Origin: Rickettsiales bacterium | GTDB taxonomy: Bacteria; Pseudomonadota; Alphaproteobacteria; Rs-D84 | Direction of reading: 5' to 3' | Assembly (NCBI GenBank): GCA_031262525.1 | Contig: JAISHM010000019.1 | Span: 6,489 to 70,488 of the forward strand | DNA: 64,000 nt | Part shown: in pieces, positions 5,420 to 52,918 of the stretch | Layout: the number at the start of each line of letters is the position of its first letter | How positions within the stretch are numbered: position 1 is the first letter of the stretch | The notes under the pieces: generated by a model | Seen by the model: only the letters and a program-made list of their open reading frames with translations | What the model was told of the DNA's origin: nothing | Database searches by the model: none | Program-made: the position numbers and the translations under genes

Positions 5420-6493
5420 ATGACAGACACAAAAAAAATCATTGCAATTGACGCGTTTGGGGGCGATAGTGCCCCCCGCTCTGTTTTGGGTGGAATGAAT
5501 CAGTTTTTGTTTCAAAATGGTGAAAATAAAACTTTTTTTCGTGTTTTTGGCGATGAAAAAAAATTGCGTCCGATGATGAAAAAGTATCCGCGTGTGGCGC
5601 GAAATTGTGAAATTATTCACGCCCCTGGGGTGATAAAGGGAACGGATAAAATCGCCAGTGTTATTCGCACCGCATCTGATACCAGTATGTATATGGCGAT
5701 ACGGGATGTTCGCGCGGGAAATTCTGTTGCGGTTATATCGGGTGGAAATACGGGCGTTTTGATGGCTTTATCAAAACTGGCGCTGAAAACAATTGTTGGG
5801 ATTTCGCGTCCTGCGATAACGACAATGGTCCCCAGTGGTGGTGGCGATGGGCGCACTGTTATTCTGGATTTGGGGGCGAATATCCAAACGGATGCGGAAA
5901 ATTTATTTGACTTTGCATTGATGGGGGCGGTGTATGCTGAAACGATTGGGAAAATGTCGCGGCCGAAACTGGGGGTATTGAATATTGGTGAAGAAGAAAC
6001 CAAAGGCAACAAAACCCTGCAAAAACTGAATCGTGTGCTGAATGAAAATCGGGATAAATTGCCGTATGAATATATCGGTTTTGTAGAGGCAACTGACATC
6101 AGCGCCGGTGTGGTCCAGGTGGTGGTAACAGATGGCTGGACGGGTAATGTTGTTCTGAAAACGATTGAGGGGACTGCGAAACTGATTAAAAGGGTTTTGA
6201 TGGATACATTGAAAAAATCGTGGATTGTAATTGCTTTGTCGTTTTTACTGGTTCATGTTTTCAAGCGGTTAAAAAATAAAATGGACCCACGTTCTTATGC
6301 TGGGGCTGTGTTTTTGGGGTTGAATGGTTTTGCGGTAAAAACGCATGGAAATTCGGATGCGCTGGCTTTTGCGAACGCGATTAAATACGCGACTGATTTG
6401 GCGGATGCGGATTTTAACGAACAAATTAGGGTGGGGGCATCTGCGCTGGAAAATATAAAATCGGAATTAAAGGAACATCCAACGGGGGAATAA
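5420..6493 (+). CDS. plsX: phosphate acyltransferase PlsX
   Basis: 'KIIAIDAFGGDSAP' and 'GLNGFAVKTHGNSD'. Start set at ATG 5420, just after the rpmF stop. Confidence 0.9.
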   Translation: MTDTKKIIAIDAFGGDSAPRSVLGGMNQFLFQNGENKTFFRVFGDEKKLRPMMKKYPRVARNCEIIHAPGVIKGTDKIASVIRTASDTSMYMAIRDVRAGNSVAVISGGNTGVLMALSKLALKTIVGISRPAITTMVPSGGGDGRTVILDLGANIQTDAENLFDFALMGAVYAETIGKMSRPKLGVLNIGEEETKGNKTLQKLNRVLNENRDKLPYEYIGFVEATDISAGVVQVVVTDGWTGNVVLKTIEGTAKLIKRVLMDTLKKSWIVIALSFLLVHVFKRLKNKMDPRSYAGAVFLGLNGFAVKTHGNSDALAFANAIKYATDLADADFNEQIRVGASALENIKSELKEHPTGE

Positions 6494-11076: not shown

Positions 11077-11220
11077 ATGTCAAAGCGTAAAGATTGCGAT
11101 TGTTGCACTAATCCTTTTCACAAAGTGAAGTGGTTATTGTATGATTTTGTGATGTGTTTTTTTACCTGTATCCTGGTGCATTGGTTGATGCATTGGCTGG
11201 GATTTTGGAGCGGACATTAA
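11077..11220 (+). CDS. 47-aa Cys/Trp-rich membrane peptide (hypothetical)
   Basis: Hand translation gives MSKRKDCDCCTNPFHKVKWLLYDFVMCFFTCILVHWLMHWLGFWSGH*. Sits between the proS stop and a strong terminator. Not in the ORF track. Confidence 0.3.
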   Translation: MSKRKDCDCCTNPFHKVKWLLYDFVMCFFTCILVHWLMHWLGFWSGH

Positions 11221-11246
11221 AACGCGGAACACTTCCGCGTTTTTTA
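11219..11246 (+). terminator. rho-independent terminator
   Basis: AACGCGGAA-cac-TTCCGCGTT followed by TTTTT. Confidence 0.75.
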
Positions 11247-11303
11247 GTTATAAATAATTTTTTTCTTGCCATAATTTCCTAAAATTTTCTATACTGATAG
11301 ATA

Positions 11304-12494
11304 TTGGAGAAATGTAAAAAAATCTTTGTAAAAAGGCCGTTTTTGGCCGTTTTGCGTATTTTTACGTGTTTGGTTTTTGCGCTGTGTTTTGGATTTTTAT
11401 CAAACGATTCGTTTGCGGCAATTATTACATCAAAAACTTATGTTGATAATGCGGTCAATCAAATCACGCAAGAGTTATCATCTGTCGCCGAAATCGTTGA
11501 TACTGCATTACAATCAGAAGATTTAAGTGGATATGCAACGCAGAGTTGGGTTCTGGCCCAGGGATATTCCACTGGTGTTGATGAAAACGGAAATGTTCCC
11601 GCGACCGAGGCAAATGTCAATGCGCTGCAAACCTCGATTTTAACACACATTGACGATGCATCTAATCCGCATGATGTTGGTAAAACTCAAATTGGTTTAT
11701 CCAATGTTCCAAATGTTGATACCACGAATGCAGCAAATATAACCAGTGGAATAATCGGTTTTACACATCTGCCAATTGGCACGACCGCGACATCGGTTGC
11801 TGCTGGGAATGACGCGCGATTCGCCGAAATTGAAAACAAAGTAGATGCCACAGATTTGGGAACATCTGCATATACTGATTCAAGCGCATACGCAACCGCC
11901 GCCCAGGGGGCGCTGGCGGATACAGCGTTGCAAGAATCTGATGTTGCGGATTTGCGTTCGTTGCTGGATTTGGGTTCTTATATTGGAACAGCAGCGACAA
12001 AATCGCAATTACCATCAACGATAGCGGCGGCAAAAACCCTGTGGGGGGATAACATTACACCAACTGTAAATGACTTTTCTGATGTTCTGGTTGATGAGTC
12101 TCGTGATGGGGCAAACGATTCATACAGAATTACATCTATCAACGCGGGGGTGATTACATGGGGTGCTGAACCTTTCCGAATTTACACCCAGGATACAACT
12201 GGTCTGATGTCCAGACAGGCAGGCGCAACATCGGGACATATAGCAACCTTTGATTCCAGCGGCGGGGTTACAGACAGCGGACACACAACCGACGAATTTG
12301 CAACTGATGCTGATATAGCCACAGCGGTCAGCACAAAGGTTGATGCCGATGATTTGGGGCAGGGCGCATTTGATGATATTGGCACAACATCGGGGACGAT
12401 TGCGGCCGGCGATGACGGGCGATTTGATACAATACCGACATCTATGCCATCATCGCAATTGCAGCCTGGACGGGCGTTTATCTGGATTGAATAA
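11304..12494 (+). CDS. secreted protein with phage-tail-fibre-like motifs
   Basis: Hydrophobic N-terminus ending '...SNDSFA|AII'. Has 'NPHDVGKTQIGLSNVPNVDTTNAANITSG' and two copies of GT[TS]xx[ST][VI]AAG[ND]DxRF. Start uncertain (TTG 11304, or TTG 11343 behind AAAGG). Confidence 0.5.
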   Translation: MEKCKKIFVKRPFLAVLRIFTCLVFALCFGFLSNDSFAAIITSKTYVDNAVNQITQELSSVAEIVDTALQSEDLSGYATQSWVLAQGYSTGVDENGNVPATEANVNALQTSILTHIDDASNPHDVGKTQIGLSNVPNVDTTNAANITSGIIGFTHLPIGTTATSVAAGNDARFAEIENKVDATDLGTSAYTDSSAYATAAQGALADTALQESDVADLRSLLDLGSYIGTAATKSQLPSTIAAAKTLWGDNITPTVNDFSDVLVDESRDGANDSYRITSINAGVITWGAEPFRIYTQDTTGLMSRQAGATSGHIATFDSSGGVTDSGHTTDEFATDADIATAVSTKVDADDLGQGAFDDIGTTSGTIAAGDDGRFDTIPTSMPSSQLQPGRAFIWIE

Positions 12495-12497
12495 AAA

Positions 12498-15230
12498 ATG
12501 TTTTGCATAACGACATTTTTCCAAAAAAATAAATTTGCTTTTGCAAAATGTTTTTTATTTGTTTTTTCTATGTTTATTTTTGTTGGTGCGGCAAACGCGG
12601 TCAGTATGAATCTGAATAAGGCAGGTGGCTCGGGCGCGCTGGGGACATCAACCGGAACAGCGGCTGTGCGAATAAAATGCCAAGGTTCGTCTTGTTTATT
12701 ACCATCTGTGGGGGGGCTGACGCGCGATGGTTCAATTTATACGCAATCGCCACTTTATATGCCGGGCACGACGACTGCGCCGATACTGGGGTCCAGCATA
12801 GATGGAAATGTTCGTAATGGCTCGCCCAGCACGATATATTCGGCGGGGGTATGGTGTAATGCAGTATATGGGAATGGAACAACTTGTTTTGCTGGGAATA
12901 CGACCGTAAAGATAAAGGGAAATATGCAACTTTATGCGATGTGGTCTTGTGATGCTGGATATTACGCACCAGACCAAGATACTTGTGTGCAGGTTGAGGC
13001 TGGTTATTACAGTCCATATCAAGAACTGGATAAACATGATTGCCCAGCGGGTTCTTATTGCCCAGCGGGTTCGGCGGCTGCAAATCCATGTCCGTCCAGT
13101 CATCCACTATCAGACCCATTAAACGATGAAATTGGAAAATGTTACGCGGATACGGAATGTCCGCTGGCGCCGAATGCGACCGCAATGTCGGGACGAGATT
13201 CGTATGACGCGGCGTATGATTCTTGTGAAATAGTATCTTGTGAAGCGGGGTATAATATAATTGACGGAATGTGTATCCAGGGATGTCCATCGGGTCAATA
13301 TTTATCGGGGACGACCTGCATAGAATGCACCGCGGACAATTATTGTCTGGGTGGTTTTACACCACAAATGGAATGCCCAACAGAGTTTCCATTTGCCGAC
13401 GCGGGCAGTCATGGTTCAGACCATTGTTATTCACAATGCGAAATGTGGCCGAATGCCACGGCGATGAGTGGATATAATTTTTATGACGGGACAACAACTT
13501 GCGCGGCATCTGCATGCGCAACGGATTATACGGTTGTAAATAGCGAGTGTGAATTGACATGTGCAATTGGGTATTATTCCGAAGATGAAACAACATGTGT
13601 GCCTTGCTTAGCGGGGTATTGGTGCCCCGCTGATACTCCTTTTGAGCAAGATTGCAAGGAAGGTTTTTATTGCCCCACGGGCGCGGGCGCACAACTGGGA
13701 TGTCCCGAAGATTATCCAAACTCTGATATGCACAGCGATGCAATGACGGATTGTTATGCGGTTGGGTCGTGTTCTTTGACAACTGGCGCAACACAAATGA
13801 CCGGATATAATTTTTATGGTGGGAGCAGCACTTGCAAGGCGACGGCCTGTCAAACGGATTATGACCTTATTGACGGGGCGTGTGTTCCGGCGGCGGATAA
13901 TGTTTCGGTAACATTTTATAAATCTGGTGGAACGGGAACATTGCTGGGGGCGACTGGCACAATCGCGCCAGAATACGATTGTAATGGCGACCAATGTACT
14001 TTACCGAGTGCGGCAATTTTAACGCGTGCAAATTCAACTGCTTTTTATGCACCTGATGGGACATATCATGCAAATGGAATGTGGTGCACTGGGCCGAATG
14101 GCACGGGCGTTTGTTATGAGGGCGGAACAACGATAACACTGACCGAAGATGATGACGATGATGACACTGGCACAGACCAATACCTGTATGCAATGTTTAC
14201 TTGTATGGGGGGATACTATGCCGCGAACGACAGCACGACCGCGTGTGTCCAGGCGGGCAGTGGTTATTTCAGTCCCGCATATTCATACACACGCACCGCG
14301 TGTGAAGAAGGTAATTATTGCACAGGAACAACATTGGCACGACAAACGCCATGTCCCGAAACACATCCTGATTCTGGACCAATGAATTTATCAGTCTTGA
14401 ATTGTCGAACAGGATGTACCCTGACCGCGGGCGCAGCAACCATGGTTTCTGGGGGGTATGATTATTATGGTATAACGGATACATGTGCGGCCGCATCTTG
14501 CAATACGGGGTATGATTTAACGAATGGGGTATGTATTCCAACAAGCACAGAATGCGACCCAGGTTATTATTATAACGGGACCAGTTGTTCGGAATGTGCC
14601 GCTGGAAATTATTGCCCTGGGGGTGAAAACGCCCCTTCAAATCCGTGCCCAGAAGGTTTTATCAGGTCGGCATCAAAAAATGAAAATGTATCAACTTGTT
14701 ATGCTAATTGCGCTATCACGGAAAATGCGGTATCTATGACTGGTTATAATTATTATATGGCAACTGATACTTGCGCGCCATCAGCGTGCAAAGTAAATTA
14801 CGCGTTGGAAAATGGTGTGTGTGTATTAAACGCTTGTCCGATGGGGCAATTTATGAATGGTGGAATTTGTGATACATGTGGCGCGGGGCTTTGGTATGCG
14901 GGCGCAGGGACAAGTTGCGAATCCGTAGGAACAAGTTATTACAGCCCGATGGATGACAGCCGTCGTTATCAGTGTCCTGTGAATAAATTGTCGGGTGGAA
15001 ATGGAGAGTATGCAGACAGCATTATTGACTGCACAAATTATAAAACGCTTAAAATTTCGGACGGGACAAACCTGGTCAGTATTATTATGAGAACACAAAA
15101 AATGACCAGTCCTGCGTTAAATGTTTATGATGGGGCAAATGTTTATTATGGAAATTTATCGGGTGTTGCGCCATCTGGACGGGGAATTCATATCGGAAAT
15201 TATTATTTATCAAGCAATCAAAGCGATTGA
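12498..15230 (+). CDS. 910-aa secreted Cys-rich repeat surface protein (two super-repeats)
   Basis: Signal peptide '...FVGAANA'. A module beginning 'V[ST][MV].[LF].K[AS]GG[ST]G...C.LPS...LTR...LYAM[WF][ST]C..GYYA' starts at about aa 35 and again at about aa 469. Many 'C..G.YC[PT]GG/AG' and 'C...Y.L..G.C' units follow. Confidence 0.8.
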   Translation: MFCITTFFQKNKFAFAKCFLFVFSMFIFVGAANAVSMNLNKAGGSGALGTSTGTAAVRIKCQGSSCLLPSVGGLTRDGSIYTQSPLYMPGTTTAPILGSSIDGNVRNGSPSTIYSAGVWCNAVYGNGTTCFAGNTTVKIKGNMQLYAMWSCDAGYYAPDQDTCVQVEAGYYSPYQELDKHDCPAGSYCPAGSAAANPCPSSHPLSDPLNDEIGKCYADTECPLAPNATAMSGRDSYDAAYDSCEIVSCEAGYNIIDGMCIQGCPSGQYLSGTTCIECTADNYCLGGFTPQMECPTEFPFADAGSHGSDHCYSQCEMWPNATAMSGYNFYDGTTTCAASACATDYTVVNSECELTCAIGYYSEDETTCVPCLAGYWCPADTPFEQDCKEGFYCPTGAGAQLGCPEDYPNSDMHSDAMTDCYAVGSCSLTTGATQMTGYNFYGGSSTCKATACQTDYDLIDGACVPAADNVSVTFYKSGGTGTLLGATGTIAPEYDCNGDQCTLPSAAILTRANSTAFYAPDGTYHANGMWCTGPNGTGVCYEGGTTITLTEDDDDDDTGTDQYLYAMFTCMGGYYAANDSTTACVQAGSGYFSPAYSYTRTACEEGNYCTGTTLARQTPCPETHPDSGPMNLSVLNCRTGCTLTAGAATMVSGGYDYYGITDTCAAASCNTGYDLTNGVCIPTSTECDPGYYYNGTSCSECAAGNYCPGGENAPSNPCPEGFIRSASKNENVSTCYANCAITENAVSMTGYNYYMATDTCAPSACKVNYALENGVCVLNACPMGQFMNGGICDTCGAGLWYAGAGTSCESVGTSYYSPMDDSRRYQCPVNKLSGGNGEYADSIIDCTNYKTLKISDGTNLVSIIMRTQKMTSPALNVYDGANVYYGNLSGVAPSGRGIHIGNYYLSSNQSD

Positions 15231-15239
15231 ATAAGATAT

Positions 15240-15623
15240 CTATCTTGTTTGTTCCAGCGCCCTGGCACACACAAAACATTTTTGGTCGGTTTTGCAATCG
15301 GGACAATTATATTTGATATAATTATTCATCGGACATTCGTCGCAATAATTATAACAATGTGTTATAAGACTATGTGAGGATATGTTCGGAAATAATATCT
15401 TATCACAACTATCTTCTGGAAATTCACATACTGGATTTTGATTGTTTTTATAATCCACAGTACCAAATTGTTGAACCAGTTCCAAAACTTTACATTTTCG
15501 TTCATCACCAGAATTATGATAGGAAACTGCGTTTTGACAGTATAAAATGATTCTTGTATTTCGCCAATTTTCTGAAAAACCAACTGGCGCATAATAACGA
15601 AATGATATAAAACTGGACGACAT
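15240..15623 (-). CDS. Cys-rich hypothetical protein (127 aa)
   Basis: CxxC-type clusters (CYNYCDEC, CPDC, CFVC). Convergent with the 910-aa gene across a 9-nt gap. Confidence 0.4.
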   Translation of the reverse strand: MSSSFISFRYYAPVGFSENWRNTRIILYCQNAVSYHNSGDERKCKVLELVQQFGTVDYKNNQNPVCEFPEDSCDKILFPNISSHSLITHCYNYCDECPMNNYIKYNCPDCKTDQKCFVCARALEQTR

Positions 15624-15673
15624 TTATAATATCTGTTTTGTTTGTATCTCTCTCTTACCCCAGATATTATTAT

Positions 15674-15701
15674 GGAAACGCGGGGGGTCCCCCGCGTTTC
15701 C
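15674..15701 (-). terminator. GC-rich hairpin immediately after the rpsA stop
   Basis: GGAAACGCGGGG-ggtc-CCCCGCGTTTCC. The U-tract is weak on the minus strand and strong on the plus strand, so it may act in both directions. Confidence 0.5.
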
Positions 15702-15708
15702 GTGTTTT

Positions 15709-17397
15709 TTACTTTTTGCTGTTTTCAATGGCCGCGCCCAAGATATCGCCCAACACACTGCCGCTGTCGGCCTGGTTTGCGTAATCTTTGACTGCTTGTT
15801 TTTCCATTGCAACCTGTAATGCGCGCACAGACAATTTAACATCCGACCCGTCTGTTGCGACGACAGATGCCTCTATCGTATCGCCAACATTGAATTTTGA
15901 TGTGTTTTGTCCTTCTTTTTCACGCGACAGGTCTGTGCGACGGATAATTCCGCGCGCATCCCCCGGCAGGGCAACAATAACTTCATCAGGCGTGATTTCG
16001 GAAATTGTTCCCGCAACCACCGCGCCTTTTTTAAGGGATGATTTATTGTCTTCGCCACCATCGGTCATCTGTTTGATGCCCAATGTGATGCGTTCTTTTT
16101 CAGGATTGATGTCCAGGATTTTCGCCGTGACTTCTTGACCGCGAACGAATTTTTTCAATTCTTCTTCGTCCAGTTTATTCCAGGACAAGTCAGAAATATG
16201 AACCATTCCGTCTAATTCTGGTGTCAGCGCGACAAACAAACCAAATTCGGTTGTGTTTTTAATCGGACCGGTTACAACATCGCCAACATTGTGTGTTTCT
16301 GCAAATTTTTTCCAAGGATTACCTTGTAATTGTTTATAACCCAATGAAATACGGCGTTTATCTTGGTCAATACCCAAAATAATCACATCAATTTCTTGAC
16401 CATTTTGCAGAACGCTAGACGGATGAACATTTTTGTTGGTCCAGGATAATTCAGACATATGGATTAAACCCTCTATCCCGTCGCCCAAATCAACAAACGC
16501 ACCATAGTCGGTAAGTGATGATACTTTCCCGTGCAAAGTATCGCCGATGTTAAACGCACGTGACGCGGACGCCCATGGGTCTTCTTCCAGTTGTTTCATC
16601 CCCAATGATACACGACCGGATTCTGGGTCAAATTGAATAACTTTTACCTTAATCTTTTCGCCGGTATGAACAACTTCGCGTGGGTGATTTACGCGTTTCC
16701 AAGACAGGTCGGTAACATGCAACAGCCCGTCAATTCCGCCCAAATCAACAAACACACCATAATCGGTAATGTTTTTTACAACCCCATCCAGCACCGCGCC
16801 CAGCGATATGTTTTTCATCGCTTCTTTTTGTGCCGCTGCAATAGAATCAGATTGAATTGCACGACGCGATACAATCGCGTTTGTCCGCAAAGCGTCCATT
16901 TTCAAGACACGGAATTTGTCGGTTACACCAACCAAAGCCTTTGGGTCGCGTGGAGGGCGACTATCTGCCTGACTTGCTGGCATAAACGCAAACACCCCAT
17001 TCAAATCAACTGTGTATCCACCGCGCACAGCCTCTATAATCGTTCCTGTTGGGTCAATTCCATCTGCAACCGCTTTTTCCAGTTCTTTCCATGCTTTTTC
17101 TGCACGTGCCTTTGCATACGATAAAACTGCGGTCCCTTCGCGTGATTCATAGCGTTCAACAAAAACATCAATAATATCACCAACCTGTGGGGGATTTGCG
17201 CCAAATTCTTTTAATGGAACGCGCCCCTCGGATTTCAGACCAACATCAACCAAAACAAAGTCATCACGAATATCTTTGACTGTTCCCTTGGTTGCATAAC
17301 CCTGAAGAGTTTCTTGTTTGCCATAATTGGTATCAAACATTTCTGCGAAATTTTCGTTCGCAATTGGATTAAATAAATCTTTGGATAAATCTTTCAT
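15709..17397 (-). CDS. rpsA: 30S ribosomal protein S1
   Basis: Six S1-type repeats, for example 'GTVKDIRDDFVLVDVGLKSEG' and 'GVVKNITDYGVFVDLGGIDGLLHVTDLSW'. Start trimmed to MKDLSKDLF (ATG 17397). Confidence 0.93.
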   Translation of the reverse strand: MKDLSKDLFNPIANENFAEMFDTNYGKQETLQGYATKGTVKDIRDDFVLVDVGLKSEGRVPLKEFGANPPQVGDIIDVFVERYESREGTAVLSYAKARAEKAWKELEKAVADGIDPTGTIIEAVRGGYTVDLNGVFAFMPASQADSRPPRDPKALVGVTDKFRVLKMDALRTNAIVSRRAIQSDSIAAAQKEAMKNISLGAVLDGVVKNITDYGVFVDLGGIDGLLHVTDLSWKRVNHPREVVHTGEKIKVKVIQFDPESGRVSLGMKQLEEDPWASASRAFNIGDTLHGKVSSLTDYGAFVDLGDGIEGLIHMSELSWTNKNVHPSSVLQNGQEIDVIILGIDQDKRRISLGYKQLQGNPWKKFAETHNVGDVVTGPIKNTTEFGLFVALTPELDGMVHISDLSWNKLDEEELKKFVRGQEVTAKILDINPEKERITLGIKQMTDGGEDNKSSLKKGAVVAGTISEITPDEVIVALPGDARGIIRRTDLSREKEGQNTSKFNVGDTIEASVVATDGSDVKLSVRALQVAMEKQAVKDYANQADSGSVLGDILGAAIENSKK

Positions 17398-20025: not shown

Positions 20026-20940
20026 TTATTTAGGCAGAATTCCCGCCCGCGGATGCGAATGATTATAAATATCCATTATTTGCGTCATATCCACCCGTGT
20101 ATAAAGTTGTGTTGTGGAAAGCGACGAATGCCCCAATAACTCTTGTAAAGAACGCAAATCCACCCCGCCCGCCAGCAGAGCCGTCGCAAATGTATGACGC
20201 AGTGCGTGTGGCGTTACATAATCGGGTAATTGTAAATAATTTCGGATTTTTTCAACCTGTTTTTGCGCCATTCGCGGCGTCATTGGTAACCCGCGGACAC
20301 TGCGGAACAGCGGTCCGTCCGAAAAATTAAAAGGCAATATTTTTTTGTATTTTTCCAACGCGTCCATAACCGCGGGCAAAATCGGAACAATTCTTTCCTT
20401 GCCACCCTTGCCCATAATTCGCAACACTTCGGGGCGACCACGAATGTCGGCGGGCGTCAATGACAACGCCTCGGATATTCGTAGCCCGCACCCAAAAATC
20501 AGTAAAACCAACGCAAAATCACGCGCTGCAACCCAGGGCTCGGTATCTATTTCGCGCACTGCATCGCCCATCTGAGCAACTGACGCAGATTCAATTGCTT
20601 TTGATAATTTTCGCGGAACCTTTGGAGAAGATATTAAACCAATCGCCGTATTTTTTATCCCAAATCGCCGCGCCAAAAATTTATAAAACGCGCGTAGTGA
20701 TGATAAGGCCCGCGCCGATGATTTCGCTGAAAGTTCGCGACGTGCCCGCTGTGCCAACCACGCACGAAACACATACGAATCAGCGTTTGCTATATCCACG
20801 CGTAAAATATCGTGTCCAATATATTCCCCCATAAAACGCACAAAATCATCAACATCTGTGCGGTATGCGTTCGCGGTGTATGGTGAATACTTTTTCACCC
20901 CCAATAATTCATTTATAAAATCAGTAATTTCCGAATTCAT
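20026..20940 (-). CDS. xerC: tyrosine recombinase XerC/XerD family
   Basis: 'HALRHTFATALLAGGVDLRSLQELLGHSSLSTTQLYTRV' and 'GLRISEALSL'. The C versus D assignment is tentative. Confidence 0.8.
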   Translation of the reverse strand: MNSEITDFINELLGVKKYSPYTANAYRTDVDDFVRFMGEYIGHDILRVDIANADSYVFRAWLAQRARRELSAKSSARALSSLRAFYKFLARRFGIKNTAIGLISSPKVPRKLSKAIESASVAQMGDAVREIDTEPWVAARDFALVLLIFGCGLRISEALSLTPADIRGRPEVLRIMGKGGKERIVPILPAVMDALEKYKKILPFNFSDGPLFRSVRGLPMTPRMAQKQVEKIRNYLQLPDYVTPHALRHTFATALLAGGVDLRSLQELLGHSSLSTTQLYTRVDMTQIMDIYNHSHPRAGILPK

Positions 20941-20956
20941 CGGTTTATTATAACAT

Positions 20957-20986
20957 AAAAAAATGTGGGCGATGCCCACATTTTTA
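20957..20986 (-). terminator. rho-independent terminator after the DsbA-like gene
   Basis: ATGTGGGC-gat-GCCCACAT with flanking A and T runs. Confidence 0.65.
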
Positions 20987-21805
20987 TTTTAATGCTTCAC
21001 GAATTGTTGATTCTGGAACCGCACCAGGAAATGCCTGGTCGCCAACAATCACGAATGGTGTGCCCTGGATGCCGAACTCTTGGGAAACCGCACGTGTTTC
21101 TGCCAATTCCGCGGCAACAACTTCGCCGTCCATATCTGCGTTCATCTTGTCAATGTCACAGCCCGCTTTTTGTGCAGCAGCCAAAACATTTTTCAAAATG
21201 GTTTTTTCAATTTTCGCAGGGTCTTGTTTCAGGTCAGATGGCCAATAATTTTTTTCCATCAAGATATGATTTAATTTTTCTGAATCACATCCCTGGACCT
21301 TGGACGCAACCATCGCCTTGGCCGCTGCATCCGACAACAATCCATGGTTAGACAGGTTTTTCAAAACAACGCGAACATCTTTTTCTGTTTTCAGCAGATT
21401 TTCCAATTCGCCATTCAGACGACGGCAATAACCACATGAATAATCTGTGAAAACATAGATTGTTTTTTTCGCGTCTTTGTTGCCTATAATTGGCGCGTTT
21501 TTCATCATTTCGTCGCCATATTTTTTGACGTGTTTTTTAATGCCTGTTGTCATTTTTTCTTGTTCGGCCGCCTGGGCGCCACGAACCATATCCATCACAA
21601 TTCCAGGATTCGTAGATGTCAAATAAATTGGTGTCCAAATACGCGCAACACCAACAATCAGTAACACCAACGCCACCAATTTAATGGATTTTTTAACCAG
21701 CATTTTTTGCAGGTTCGGTTGTTTTTTTGGGTCGTGTTTTACCAACATTCCGCCAAACATAAAAAGTGCAATTGCAATCAGCAGCACCAGTATTGTCAAA
21801 GCCAT
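20984..21805 (-). CDS. membrane-anchored DsbA-family thiol:disulfide oxidoreductase
   Basis: N-terminal TM helices. Thioredoxin-fold active site 'FTDYSCGYCRRL' and 'GIQGTPFVIVG'. Confidence 0.75.
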   Translation of the reverse strand: MALTILVLLIAIALFMFGGMLVKHDPKKQPNLQKMLVKKSIKLVALVLLIVGVARIWTPIYLTSTNPGIVMDMVRGAQAAEQEKMTTGIKKHVKKYGDEMMKNAPIIGNKDAKKTIYVFTDYSCGYCRRLNGELENLLKTEKDVRVVLKNLSNHGLLSDAAAKAMVASKVQGCDSEKLNHILMEKNYWPSDLKQDPAKIEKTILKNVLAAAQKAGCDIDKMNADMDGEVVAAELAETRAVSQEFGIQGTPFVIVGDQAFPGAVPESTIREALK

Positions 21806-25287: not shown

Positions 25288-27666
25288 ATGATTTATATGG
25301 AAATGAGAAGATATTTCATCTTTACAGCGATTTTTATTGCGCTGGGCGTAATGCCCTTGTGCGCGGCGACGCGTGATGCGCGCGTGGTTCGGACATCTGG
25401 GACAACTGCGCGGACGGCGGTAAGCGCACCGCGAACGACGCGCCCGGCAACCACAAATACGGCGCGTTCGGCGCGTGCGGCGACATCTGTATCACGGGCG
25501 ACGACGACTGCGCGTGGTGCGACGATTTCGCGTGCTGCGACGGATAGCGCGGCGCAAACACGAACTGGCGCGGCGTATGAAACTTGCAAGGCTTCGTATT
25601 TTGCCTGTATGGACCAATTTTGCGCGGTAAAAAATGCAAATTATAAACGTTGTTCTTGCTCTGATAAAATTTTTGATATAACCCAGACGCAAAGCATTAT
25701 CCAAGATGCTGGTACAGAATTGACCGAATTCACAGAAAACCTGGGAAATGTTGGTTTGACTGCATCCCAGGCGACGGTTATGAAGCAAGCGACCGAGGGG
25801 GAAAAAGCATTGACAGATGACGGGTCGGCGTCTGCGGCAATTTTACAGGCAATAATGAATTCTATAAAGGGCGAAAACGCAAATGTCGGCGGAATTTACG
25901 AGGGTATGAATAGTATAAATATTCAACTGGATGATTCTGCGGGATTGGGTGGTGGTGAAAGCGCGAATACAATTGCAAATTATAATGGTAAAAATATTTA
26001 TACCGCGGTTTATGGAACATGTCGCGATGTCGTGCGTGCGGATTGCACAGATGCGTCTTTGCAACGGGCGATTACGGCGTATTTAATGGCGATTGAACAA
26101 GATTGTAATTCGGTGCAAACGCAATTGGAAGCAACGAAAAAGAAAATGGTCTCTGGCGTGCGCGAGGCCGATGCAATGTTAAAATTGGCGCGCGTTGAAA
26201 ATCGTAAAACTGAAAATTCCCTGGATATTACGGCGTGTTTGGACGATGTAGAGCGGGCCGTTTTATCCGAAGAAGTTTGTGGTGCAAATTATCACAAATG
26301 TTTGGATAATGGAAAATATATAGATGTCGCAACGGGTAAGCCACTGACCGGTGTCGTAGAGTTTTATAAATTACAAGAATTGTTAAATTTTGCTACGGAT
26401 AAAAGTATTGACGACCAGCGTCTGGCGAAAAATCCAAAAAATCGCGCTTTTGTAAATGCTTTCGAGGGTAAGGTTCGTTCATTTGCGCAACCTGTGTTGG
26501 ATAAGTGTCGGGAAATAGCGGACGATGTTTGGGCGGATTATTTGGACAAAGCGATGTTGGAAATTTATTACGCGCAGCGGGGTAAGGTTGATGAAATTAA
26601 AACAGGGTGTATGGATTTTGTATCGGCGTGTTATACAAATGGAGAGAGGTCTATTACTGCGGCAATGTCGGGAATAATAAATGGCGCGACTGGATTGGCA
26701 CCAGATACAATAAATTTATTGGACGATACTTGTAAAAATTATGTTGCAGCGTGTGATAAAATGTTTGATGGAAATATAATTGCGCAATACATTGACACGC
26801 GCAAAGAAACAGATTTAACAGATTCTTGTCGTGCGATTGTCCAGCAGTGTTTTGATAACTTTGGTGGTGTTGCATATAATAATTTTTATAATCCAGTCAA
26901 TGGGCTATTTTCAACAGGGCGGGCGCTGGATTGGTTTTCTTATGAGCAATTTTGTGTCCAGGGCGACCCGAATTGCACCATTGGTATAAAATCGCCGTGC
27001 GCCCAGAAATTGAGTGAGGTTGCGGCCTGTAATCCATCAAATGACCCAGAATTTGCAAAAAATATATTTGGCGGATTTGATACTGATGGGACGAATTATG
27101 GACTGGTTGAAAATGGCGTTTTGGATACAATGAAAATGCGGGCTAATGGCGTCGCGACCGAGGTTTATAATCAAATTGTAAAAAACTTGACATCTGATTG
27201 TGCAAATTATGGTGCGGAATTTGTGCAATACAGATATGTAATGTATCAAAATGCGAGTTATTATTATCAGTATGCTGATACCGCGGGTAATGGATTATGT
27301 ACTGCGACATTTTCTTCGGGGAATAACATCAGGGCGGATTATTTAATTGGTGGTGGCAGTTGGGTTGAAAATATGTGTCCGCAAAATTATTGGAATCGGG
27401 TTGATACTACATCATGGGGTGTTTGCTCGTGTTGGGAAAATGGTGGTCGGCGCAGTGATGGTGGAATATCATTAAAATGTATCCCAGGGACATACAATAA
27501 CTCTGGTAATGTCCGCGGGATATTTACAGGAATAAACGCAGCGTATCCAAAAAACACGGGTAAAATTTGCCCAAAAACTTACAACGCCCAAACCAATCAA
27601 TGTTTTAATGGTGGTAATGTTCCTTATGACCAAGACAACTTAAATTTAATACCAGATGCAATGTAA
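25288..27666 (+). CDS. 792-aa secreted Cys-rich protein with Arg/Thr/Ala-rich N-terminal low-complexity region
   Basis: Signal peptide '...ALGVMPLCA'. An R/T/A tract of about 65 aa is encoded by locally GC-rich DNA. More than 30 Cys follow in paired spacing. Confidence 0.7.
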   Translation: MIYMEMRRYFIFTAIFIALGVMPLCAATRDARVVRTSGTTARTAVSAPRTTRPATTNTARSARAATSVSRATTTARGATISRAATDSAAQTRTGAAYETCKASYFACMDQFCAVKNANYKRCSCSDKIFDITQTQSIIQDAGTELTEFTENLGNVGLTASQATVMKQATEGEKALTDDGSASAAILQAIMNSIKGENANVGGIYEGMNSINIQLDDSAGLGGGESANTIANYNGKNIYTAVYGTCRDVVRADCTDASLQRAITAYLMAIEQDCNSVQTQLEATKKKMVSGVREADAMLKLARVENRKTENSLDITACLDDVERAVLSEEVCGANYHKCLDNGKYIDVATGKPLTGVVEFYKLQELLNFATDKSIDDQRLAKNPKNRAFVNAFEGKVRSFAQPVLDKCREIADDVWADYLDKAMLEIYYAQRGKVDEIKTGCMDFVSACYTNGERSITAAMSGIINGATGLAPDTINLLDDTCKNYVAACDKMFDGNIIAQYIDTRKETDLTDSCRAIVQQCFDNFGGVAYNNFYNPVNGLFSTGRALDWFSYEQFCVQGDPNCTIGIKSPCAQKLSEVAACNPSNDPEFAKNIFGGFDTDGTNYGLVENGVLDTMKMRANGVATEVYNQIVKNLTSDCANYGAEFVQYRYVMYQNASYYYQYADTAGNGLCTATFSSGNNIRADYLIGGGSWVENMCPQNYWNRVDTTSWGVCSCWENGGRRSDGGISLKCIPGTYNNSGNVRGIFTGINAAYPKNTGKICPKTYNAQTNQCFNGGNVPYDQDNLNLIPDAM

Positions 27667-52567: not shown

Positions 52568-52918
52568 ATGGCAGAAAGTATAGTTGCTGGTAAAAGTGAG
52601 CTTTTTGCTATACGTATTATAAATCTCTATAAATATCTTTTTGATAAGAAAAAAGAATTTATTTTATCAAAACAAATCTTGCGTTCTGGGACCAGTATTG
52701 GTGCAAATCTGGTTGAAGCTAAGTTTGCTATATCAAAAAAAGATTTTATTTGTAAGTTTCATATTTCAATAAAAGAGTGTTCTGAAACTTTGTATTGGCT
52801 TAGGTTATTAAAAGAAACTGGGTATTTATCACAAAATGAATTTGATAGTATTTATTCTGAATGTGAAGAAATACTTAAAATACTTGTAACATCCATAAAA
52901 ACGGCAAAGAAAAAATGA
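52568..52918 (+). CDS. four-helix-bundle protein (23S rRNA intervening-sequence protein / Avd family)
   Basis: 'QILRSGTSIGANLVEA', 'SKKDFICKFHISIKECSETLYWLRLL'. Visibly more AT-rich than its flanks. Confidence 0.8.
   Translation: MAESIVAGKSELFAIRIINLYKYLFDKKKEFILSKQILRSGTSIGANLVEAKFAISKKDFICKFHISIKECSETLYWLRLLKETGYLSQNEFDSIYSECEEILKILVTSIKTAKKK

Follow-up and report, generated by a model that had tools for sequence, protein, structure and literature searches.

A conserved gene pair of an Rs-D84 alphaproteobacterium from the termite gut, encoding an exported protein of tail-fibre-type modules and a cysteine-rich repeat protein: a putative surface contact apparatus

Described relatives of the two proteins

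Two adjacent genes, hereafter gene 1 and gene 2, are the subject of this work. They lie in a stretch of 64,000 nucleotides (the window; positions 6,489 to 70,488 of contig JAISHM010000019.1, assembly GCA_031262525.1) from a Rickettsiales bacterium of the lineage Rs-D84, whose genome was assembled from a termite-gut metagenome (790 kb in 21 contigs, 86% complete). Rs-D84 bacteria have reduced genomes of ~0.8-1 Mb, are metabolically poor and probably partner-dependent, and are widespread in the guts of animals and insects; the article describing them makes no mention of their surface proteins (PMC12306168). A literature search found no published account of how these bacteria make contact with their partners. 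Here we propose that the pair is a conserved two-gene operon that probably provides this reduced-genome termite-gut alphaproteobacterium with an apparatus for cell-surface contact or adhesion, and we compare its products with the closest described systems.

For gene 1, these are the tail fibres of phages. Long tail and tail-collar fibres have the modules NPHxVTKxQVGLGNVxN, DFIKNKPxLG, LDxxGKVPxxQLP and VAAGNDxRF in common with the gene 1 family (PHROG 11029, 25620, 2712, 7389, 1446 and others, with Pfam PTR PF12789 in distant matches). Unlike phage tail fibres, gene 1 carries a Sec signal peptide and sits in a housekeeping chromosomal setting with no virion genes nearby; it has the sequence modules of a tail fibre, and neither the phage or prophage location nor the lack of a secretion signal that go with one.

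Gene 2 recalls several kinds of proteins. The Flg_new or Listeria-Bacteroides repeat (PF09479; InlB B-repeat) is marked by the landmark order xTFxxNGGxG ... LPxxxxTRxG ... tLYAxW, which is kept in the modules opening the two halves of gene 2 (N-modules), where two pairs of cysteines and long insertions are added. The cysteine-rich domains of ephrin receptors (Eph) and of tumour necrosis factor receptors (TNFR), together with ELAPOR1, have CxxGxYC...C motifs in common with the repeat units of gene 2, which unlike them occurs in a bacterial setting with no kinase or death-domain partner. Like gene 2, the Chlamydomonas mastigoneme protein Mst1 (PDB 8wa2, 8tx1, 9b4h) is a long extracellular-type protein of serial small disulfide-rich modules, which in Mst1 build a hair-like fibre. 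It gave the best Foldseek match of the whole gene 2 model (E 1e-7, but TM ~0.1), and with no sequence homology and a query model of low confidence it serves as a working analogy only. Finally, the giant tail-bearing, Cys-rich exported proteins of Candidatus Enterousia and Rs-D84 share with gene 2 the unit type, the association with Flg_new domains and a C-terminal tail. Gene 2 has the signal peptide, the units and the ~65-aa tail of this family; compared with the giants, which reach 2,000-6,500 aa, it is compact (910 aa) and is the sole tail-bearing gene of its genome. In the Enterousia-like genomes checked, by contrast, genes with the gene 1 core and genes with the tail are unpaired, being found on separate contigs or at distances of tens of kb.

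The locus belongs with the modular bacterial surface fibres and adhesins, a known kind of system. The literature search found no publication describing the gene 1 or gene 2 proteins, in agreement with an earlier note on this DNA, made from the letters alone, which knew of no characterised counterpart.

An exported protein of tail-fibre-type modules

As read from its sequence, gene 1 is an exported chromosomal protein of tail-fibre-type modules and not a prophage fibre. The earlier note had been struck by motifs of phage tail-fibre or receptor-binding proteins and by a hydrophobic, signal-like start. All the motifs are there, namely NPHDVGKTQIGLSNVPNVDTT (aa 121-141), ANITSGII, GTTATSVAAGNDARF (aa 159-173) and GTTSGTIAAGDDGRF (aa 361-375), and the start is a Sec signal peptide (Table 1). 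This peptide is kept in gene 1 of the window and in 4 of 6 aligned relatives; the two others have a different hydrophobic leader (P0006) or none (P0009). Behind it follows the motif SKTYVD (aa 43-48), of the form SK.YVD.G found after the signal peptide in every fibre-like protein of the relatives' cluster described below. The initiation codon may be TTG 11304 or TTG 11352; the public gene call uses the latter, 16 codons downstream, and gives 380 aa.

The tail-fibre similarity is concentrated in one block (aa 96-173) that reads NPHxVxKxQxGLxNVxNVDxTNAxNIxxG...LPxG...VAAGNDxRF and matches PHROG families of tail, tail-collar-fibre and minor-tail proteins at E 3e-7 to 7e-5. Among its orthologs, P0010 and P0007 have matches to a large number of tail and tail-fibre families in PHROG (best E 5e-20 and 2e-18), which bears out the likeness seen by the earlier note. 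Orthologs show 41-47% identity; the family alignment shows varying numbers of the fibre repeats DFIKNKPxLG and LDxxGKVPxxQLP, and an ortholog-invariant end, DTIPTxAP...GRAFIWIE. Between these parts, an ortholog-specific central domain is without any family match and has W247, P253, D257, SYRI 273-276, W286 and PF 290-291 among its invariant residues. Gene 1 as a whole has no match in Pfam or NCBIfam.

The gene 1 profile matches 62 of 201 sampled genomes of the order. In Enterousia-like genomes, the core of the protein (signal peptide, NPH block and IPT...W(I/F)(E/N) end) exists as a mini-protein of 110-190 aa, with IPTAQP...GMALVWFN as the C-terminal counterpart; one stand-alone mini-protein of 111 aa shares 58% identity with gene 1 across the motif block. 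In an Enterousia-like genome, a 111-aa exported mini gene 1 (L029:1432-1767, plus strand) adjoins an open reading frame (ORF) on the minus strand (L029:694-1296) that, by sequence reading, resembles a serine recombinase or resolvase. The arrangement is reminiscent of phages Mu and P1, whose tail-fibre genes are under the control of an invertase.

Other known classes were also considered. Neither gene 1 nor gene 2 has a Pfam or NCBIfam match to the autotransporter barrel domains (YadA_anchor, Autotransporter); gene 1 ends in ...GRAFIWIE and gene 2 in a tail of only ~65 aa. A diversity-generating retroelement target was rejected, as blastn of 11200-15749 against the whole assembly revealed no template repeat, its sole match being a segment of 67 nt that gene 1 shares at 80% identity with a paralogous fibre gene (609 aa) on contig C18.

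The numerous PHROG tail and tail-fibre matches, both of the gene 1 family and of the collagen-like protein of the relatives' cluster, could suggest that the pair is a remnant of a prophage, a tailocin or a phage-like particle, gene 1 being the tail fibre and gene 2 a receptor-binding tip or fibre accessory; a fibre gene with its next gene indeed resembles the pairs of fibre and tip adhesin or chaperone known from phages. This explanation is largely refuted and has become extremely improbable. Virion fibres lack the Sec signal peptides that both proteins bear; the genes within ~10 kb of the pair are all housekeeping genes, and the contexts in the relatives are of housekeeping type as well; tblastn of gene 1 and gene 2 against 50,697 GenBank phage records gave no match, and gene 2 has no PHROG match below E 0.05. 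The housekeeping neighbours were the ground for rejecting a prophage origin.

A disulfide-rich repeat protein

Gene 2 codes for a protein of 910 residues that opens with a signal peptide of non-lipoprotein type (MKKLL...SAHA before A in the orthologs) and that contains 68 cysteines (7.5% of residues). As the earlier note had perceived, it is internally duplicated: aa 35-465 and 466-845 are 34% identical over 405 columns (E 8e-52). The motifs listed there, the C..G.YCPGG-type, the C...Y.L..G.C and the LYAM[WF] modules as well as the run of six aspartates (D6) at 14148-14165, are all found, with nine copies of CxxGxY and four of CxxxYxLxxGxC. Each half consists of an N-module followed by cysteine-rich units, and the protein ends in a C-terminal tail (Table 1). 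Among the four orthologs (39-41% identity) every cysteine after the signal peptide is invariant, a conservation far beyond chance for proteins that are ~40% identical, and indels fall in loops; the D6 run (aa 551-556) is an insertion missing from the orthologs. Sequence searches of Pfam, NCBIfam and PDB found no significant match, whether for whole proteins, for single modules or for the profiles of unit and tail, and scans of metagenomes and genomes for further orthologs returned only the known loci and one weak match.

The protein holds 5.5 units of ~95 aa each, with 10 invariant cysteines per unit in an alignment of 17 unit copies. The AlphaFold2 (AF2) model of a single unit (U5), built on this alignment, is of high confidence (predicted local distance difference test, pLDDT, 96.3; predicted template modelling score, pTM, 0.79). 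Its top Foldseek match is the cysteine-rich domain of EphA2 (8trs_D, probability 0.99, TMq 0.41), with 43 columns superposed at 1.8 A and 26% identity on EphA2 8trv_B, and members of the TNFR family come next. E-values against PDB are weak (at least 0.045, none at or below 1e-3), and viral TNFR and Ephrin_rec_like proteins show an equally weak similarity. The Eph and TNFR matches cover only the first ~45 residues of the unit, and the model superposes on the disulfide-ladder fold of these cysteine-rich domains in this first half only; the beta-rich second half (CY..C....NAT.M.GY.YY...TC.A..C...Y.L..G.C) has no significant neighbour in PDB. Foldseek with the whole-protein model, whose low confidence allows a hint only, ranked ELAPOR1, Eph ectodomains and TNFRs behind the mastigoneme protein. 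Searched against 1.8 billion representatives, the unit profile retrieved 1,240 proteins at E<=1e-3; many of these are giants in which the repeat is matched tens of times, and in some Pfam Ephrin_rec_like is present.

Such resemblances might be read as mimicry, i.e., gene 2, with or without gene 1, would be a soluble effector or decoy released against the insect host or the gut protists and imitating Eph- or TNFR-like ectodomains. The fold likeness to EphA2 and TNFR members and the retrieval of eukaryote-type Ephrin_rec_like proteins speak for this. The similarity is limited, however, to a generic disulfide-ladder scaffold of ~45 aa; gene 2 has no Eph or TNFR ligand-binding domain, and the shared tail, borne by proteins of up to 3,552 aa, and the link to barrel and fibre genes favour an association with the cell. 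We hold the effector explanation to be very unlikely.

The earlier note had compared the start of each half with Flg_new-type repeats. Both N-modules share the pattern VS(M/V)x(L/F)xK(A/S)GG(S/T)G...C(L/T)LPS...LTR...LYAM(W/F), and the resemblance runs through a transitive chain and not through a direct Pfam match. The N-modules align with the shorter tandem modules of two relatives (P0098 and P0096), and the short module of P0098 scores 13.2 bits against PF09479 (E 0.1; gathering score 27 bits). In a further relative, P0100, a Cys-bearing repeat that the N-modules match (hhalign 96%) covers positions 1-64 of the 65 of PF09479 at E 5.6e-6, with 26.8 bits for a cut-off of 27. Comparison of the N-modules with three strict Flg_new repeats by hhalign gave 10%, and 96% once this intermediate repeat (P0100_1089) was added, both alignments being small. 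The relatives P0100, P0101 and P0156 have bona fide Flg_new domains, and in P0101 and P0156 these are fused to Cys units or a tail of the gene 2 type. The N-modules read as divergent, putatively disulfide-stapled derivatives of Flg_new, with formal membership unproven.

The C-terminal tail follows the pattern YKTLK...IMRT.K.TSPAL.VYDG.N.YYGNLS...YY... and is present once in this genome, in gene 2 (profile E 4e-30). A profile built on the final ~70 residues finds the tail in 134 of the 201 sampled genomes, each with 1-17 copies; the open frames that bear it measure 140-3,552 aa and differ greatly in architecture. In both examples that were read through, the tail stands at or near the C-terminus. 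It has no relative in Pfam or PDB, and a protein homology search with the tail of P0207 returned only itself. The tail is probably a common anchoring or sorting module.

Conservation of the pair and the fibre cluster

Five genomic contexts of gene 2 orthologs, all from termite-gut or similar metagenomes, have readable flanks, and the pair is adjacent in four of them when a small intervening gene is allowed in two. The 3 nt counted by the earlier note between the stop of gene 1 and the ATG of gene 2 were measured again in the window, where gene 1 lies directly upstream and both ORFs are intact. On a 6.3-kb contig from a public sequencing run (L034), a 479-aa ortholog of gene 1 overlaps by 4 nt a 950-aa ortholog of gene 2 (41% identity). 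The closest loci are those of two higher-termite metagenome-assembled genomes (MAGs), Lab288P3bin104, where the pair is split only by a small GIY-YIG gene, and Nt197P3bin125 (identical to G172), where it is split only by a small gene of the 23S-rRNA-IVP type. The pair is therefore co-conserved, being adjacent in these four contexts, and its flanks in the relatives are likewise of housekeeping type.

In these two MAGs, the pair closes a longer co-directional cluster that runs from an OmpA-like barrel through a collagen-like protein and one or two exported fibre proteins with the SK.YVD.G start to gene 1 and gene 2. The barrel gene of Nt197P3bin125 has a one-base overlap with the gene for the collagen-like protein. 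The collagen-like protein of the cluster has many PHROG tail and tail-fibre matches. In the genome under study, the remainder of the cluster is found on another contig, C18, where the barrel gene overlaps the next one and the two further genes code for a true GXY collagen-like protein and a fibre protein (Table 1). The collagen-like protein of C18 also has phage-like inserts of the form 'SAYELA..GF.G..EEWL.SL.G'.

The small genes, of GIY-YIG and 23S-rRNA-intervening-sequence type, that in two relatives (L003:9572-9934 and L007:10102-10455) occupy precisely the place between the two genes of the pair have homologs in the genome under study, one beside the fibre cluster (G000 C18:6565-6879) and one in the window (52568-52915). 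These genes may indicate where the cluster has been rearranged.

Table 1. Location of the gene pair, its parts and associated features (window coordinates unless a contig of the same assembly, G000, is given)
Feature	Location	Strand	Description
Intrinsic terminator after proS	11219-11243	+	11-bp stem, then T-run
Promoter-like site	11266-11295	+	TTGCCA-18-TATACT, just 5' of gene 1; 10/12 positions fit consensus
Gene 1	11304-12494	+	396 aa from TTG; predicted Sec-exported; phage tail-fibre-type modules
Gene 1, signal peptide	11304-11417	+	aa 1-38; cleavage after SFA, before A (read from sequence)
Gene 1, tail-fibre motif block	11589-11822	+	aa 96-173; PHROG matches map here
Gene 1, ortholog-specific central domain	11946-12293	+	aa 215-330; from family alignment
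Gene 1, second GTTxxTIAAGDDGRF motif and conserved C-terminus	12384-12491	+	DTIPTSxP...GRAFIWIE-COOH; kept in orthologs
Gene 2	12498-15230	+	910 aa; predicted Sec-exported, disulfide-rich repeat protein
Gene 2, signal peptide	12498-12599	+	aa 1-34; cleavage after ANA, before V; not lipoprotein type
Gene 2, N-module 1	12600-12947	+	aa 35-150; divergent, Cys-containing, Flg_new-like, long insertion
Gene 2, Cys-rich units U1-U3	12948-13892	+	aa 151-262, 263-354, 355-465
Gene 2, N-module 2	13893-14201	+	aa 466-568; Flg_new-like, with D6 run
Gene 2, units U4, U5 and half-unit	14202-15032	+	aa 569-685, 686-779, 780-845
Gene 2, C-terminal tail domain	15033-15227	+	aa 846-910
127-aa Cys-containing ORF	15240-15623	-	Orphan; antisense in the 440-nt stretch between gene 2 stop and + strand terminator
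Strong GC hairpin	15671-15704	+	Followed by T-run; abuts rpsA end
DsbA-like periplasmic thiol oxidase	20984-21805	-	273 aa; Pfam DSBA E 8e-17, Thioredoxin_4 E 3e-15; outside the operon
Remainder of fibre cluster	G000 C18:7384-13833	-	324-aa OmpA-like barrel overlapping a 352-aa protein by one base, then 828-aa true GXY collagen-like protein and 609-aa fibre protein
Only secretin of the genome	G000 C11:5225-7588	-	524 aa; lipoprotein signal; 253-aa partner upstream

Possible function at the cell surface

We propose the following course of events. Both products would leave the cytoplasm via Sec. Gene 1 would be a fibre protein, a trimer being probable by analogy with tail fibres and with its collagen-like cluster partner. 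Gene 2 would form a stiff, disulfide-laddered rod in which each of two Flg_new-like modules precedes a series of Eph-receptor/TNFR-like units, and the five disulfides predicted for each unit would be introduced in the periplasm by the DsbA-like enzyme, whose gene lies 5.7 kb from the pair. This enzyme is presumably the candidate maker of the disulfides; its gene adjoins that of an XerC/D-type recombinase (20026-21805 for the two, minus strand) and is the only Thioredoxin_4 match in the assembly. The tail may anchor or sort gene 2, as it may in the otherwise different exported proteins of the family. Gene 1 and gene 2 would then contact a partner cell or the surface of the host, a role that suits the probably partner-dependent lifestyle of Rs-D84; both the contact or adhesion function and the route of export across the outer membrane are inferred. 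The adhesin or host-interaction module suggested by the earlier note is supported by the similarities and by the co-conservation, with its terms 'surface', 'adhesin' and 'phage-derived' being inferences.

Several observations weigh against a contact or adhesion apparatus. The likeness to ephrin-receptor units named by the earlier note is that of the unit model to the cysteine-rich domain of EphA2, and gene 2 does not reach the Pfam thresholds of Ephrin_rec_like (PF07699/PF23091), its best match being TNFR_ELAPOR1_6th at E 3.3 in the last segment. Against Flg_new PF09479 there was no match of the whole of gene 2 at E<=1, nor of the isolated N-modules at E<=10. The full-length AF2 model of gene 2, made from four sequences, is poor (pLDDT 46), with the N-module region below pLDDT 50. 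Searches of Pfam, NCBIfam and PDB recognised no outer-membrane translocation or anchor domain in gene 1 or gene 2. The genome has one secretin and two TolC-like genes; by its neighbours the secretin looks pilus-type rather than of type II secretion, and consequently no dedicated export route was identified for the pair. Trimerisation of gene 1 and any contact between gene 1 and gene 2 are purely conjectural. In one of the five contexts (Ga0123353_10077255, 5.3 kb), the ortholog of gene 2 has no gene 1 upstream, a spermine-synthase-like gene standing in its place. Lastly, a search of sequencing runs found the locus in one DNA run and in no RNA run.

The same parts could make up a non-adhesive scaffold of the envelope that recognises no partner; it might be a coat with a protective role, a scaffold of the S-layer or glycocalyx kind, or a set of braces in the periplasm or outer membrane. 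Signal peptides, rigid repeats and fibre modules suit a passive coat equally well, the relatives' cluster begins with an OmpA-like barrel, and gene 2 is the only tail-bearing protein of its genome, which a lone structural component would lead one to expect. On the other side, Flg_new, Eph/TNFR-type and tail-fibre modules mostly bind ligands or receptors in characterised proteins; the orthologs of gene 2, ~40% identical and with indels in loops, diverge like exposed recognition proteins, and relatives carry 1-17 tail-bearing genes of very different architectures. A scaffold is in our view rather unlikely, and we retain the contact or adhesion apparatus as the probable function.

A bolder extension of this function, which we regard as distinctly unlikely, is that the tail of gene 2 and, in the gene 1 family, the SK.YVD and IPT..P...G.A.IWIE motifs are docking elements of an unrecognised surface-display system of Rs-D84, with trimeric fibres mounted on the OmpA-like barrel and receptor-like rods as exchangeable tips. 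If true, the 'fibre plus tip adhesin' of phages would have its Sec-dependent equivalent on the chromosome in this system, which would also be the main apparatus by which these bacteria hold their partners.

Within a known kind of system, several features are new. Gene 2 is a compact form of its family, tractable at 910 aa compared with 2,000-6,500 aa; its repeat unit has a high-confidence model, half of which is without known structural neighbour, and its tail of ~65 aa, now defined together with its distribution, may act as an anchoring or sorting signal not known before. New, too, is the conserved pairing of gene 2, within a fibre operon, with an exported protein that resembles tail fibres. 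The locus also documents a case in which tail-fibre blocks and receptor-like disulfide modules are joined on a bacterial chromosome to serve the envelope of the cell itself.

Genomic surroundings

The genes flanking the pair within ~10 kb are all of housekeeping type and comprise those for an SLT transglycosylase, OlsB-like and OlsA-like acyltransferases, ProRS, ribosomal protein S1, trigger factor and ribosomal proteins S9 and L13, in addition to the XerC/D-type recombinase and the DsbA-like oxidoreductase. No phage structural gene is among them, as the earlier note had remarked. The terminator after proS sets the pair apart from the upstream housekeeping genes, and the hairpin that abuts the end of rpsA likely ends the joint transcript of gene 1 and gene 2; the promoter-like site is a consensus match only. 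A genome search yielded ~200 related genomes with sizes of 0.7-1.1 Mb; these sizes, like the origin of the closest loci from higher-termite MAGs, fit a placement in Rs-D84.

The three ORFs of the region lie where the earlier note had placed them, including the convergent CxxC ORF of 127 aa beside the end of gene 2. Its membership in the module is improbable: it has no homolog in 100 family genomes and no match to the family libraries Pfam, PHROG and NCBIfam, and for want of a homolog in these genomes it was rejected as a member. This ORF is probably spurious, or else has no connection with gene 1 and gene 2.

A family of large exported proteins related to an 873-aa protein beside the relatives' cluster occupies at least nine loci in the 0.79-Mb assembly. 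These include one in the window (25288-27666, plus strand) and others on contigs C21, C18 (two copies), C4 (591-2051), C15, C11 and C7 of G000; the copy in the window has a weak match to RET_CRD (E 0.0025).

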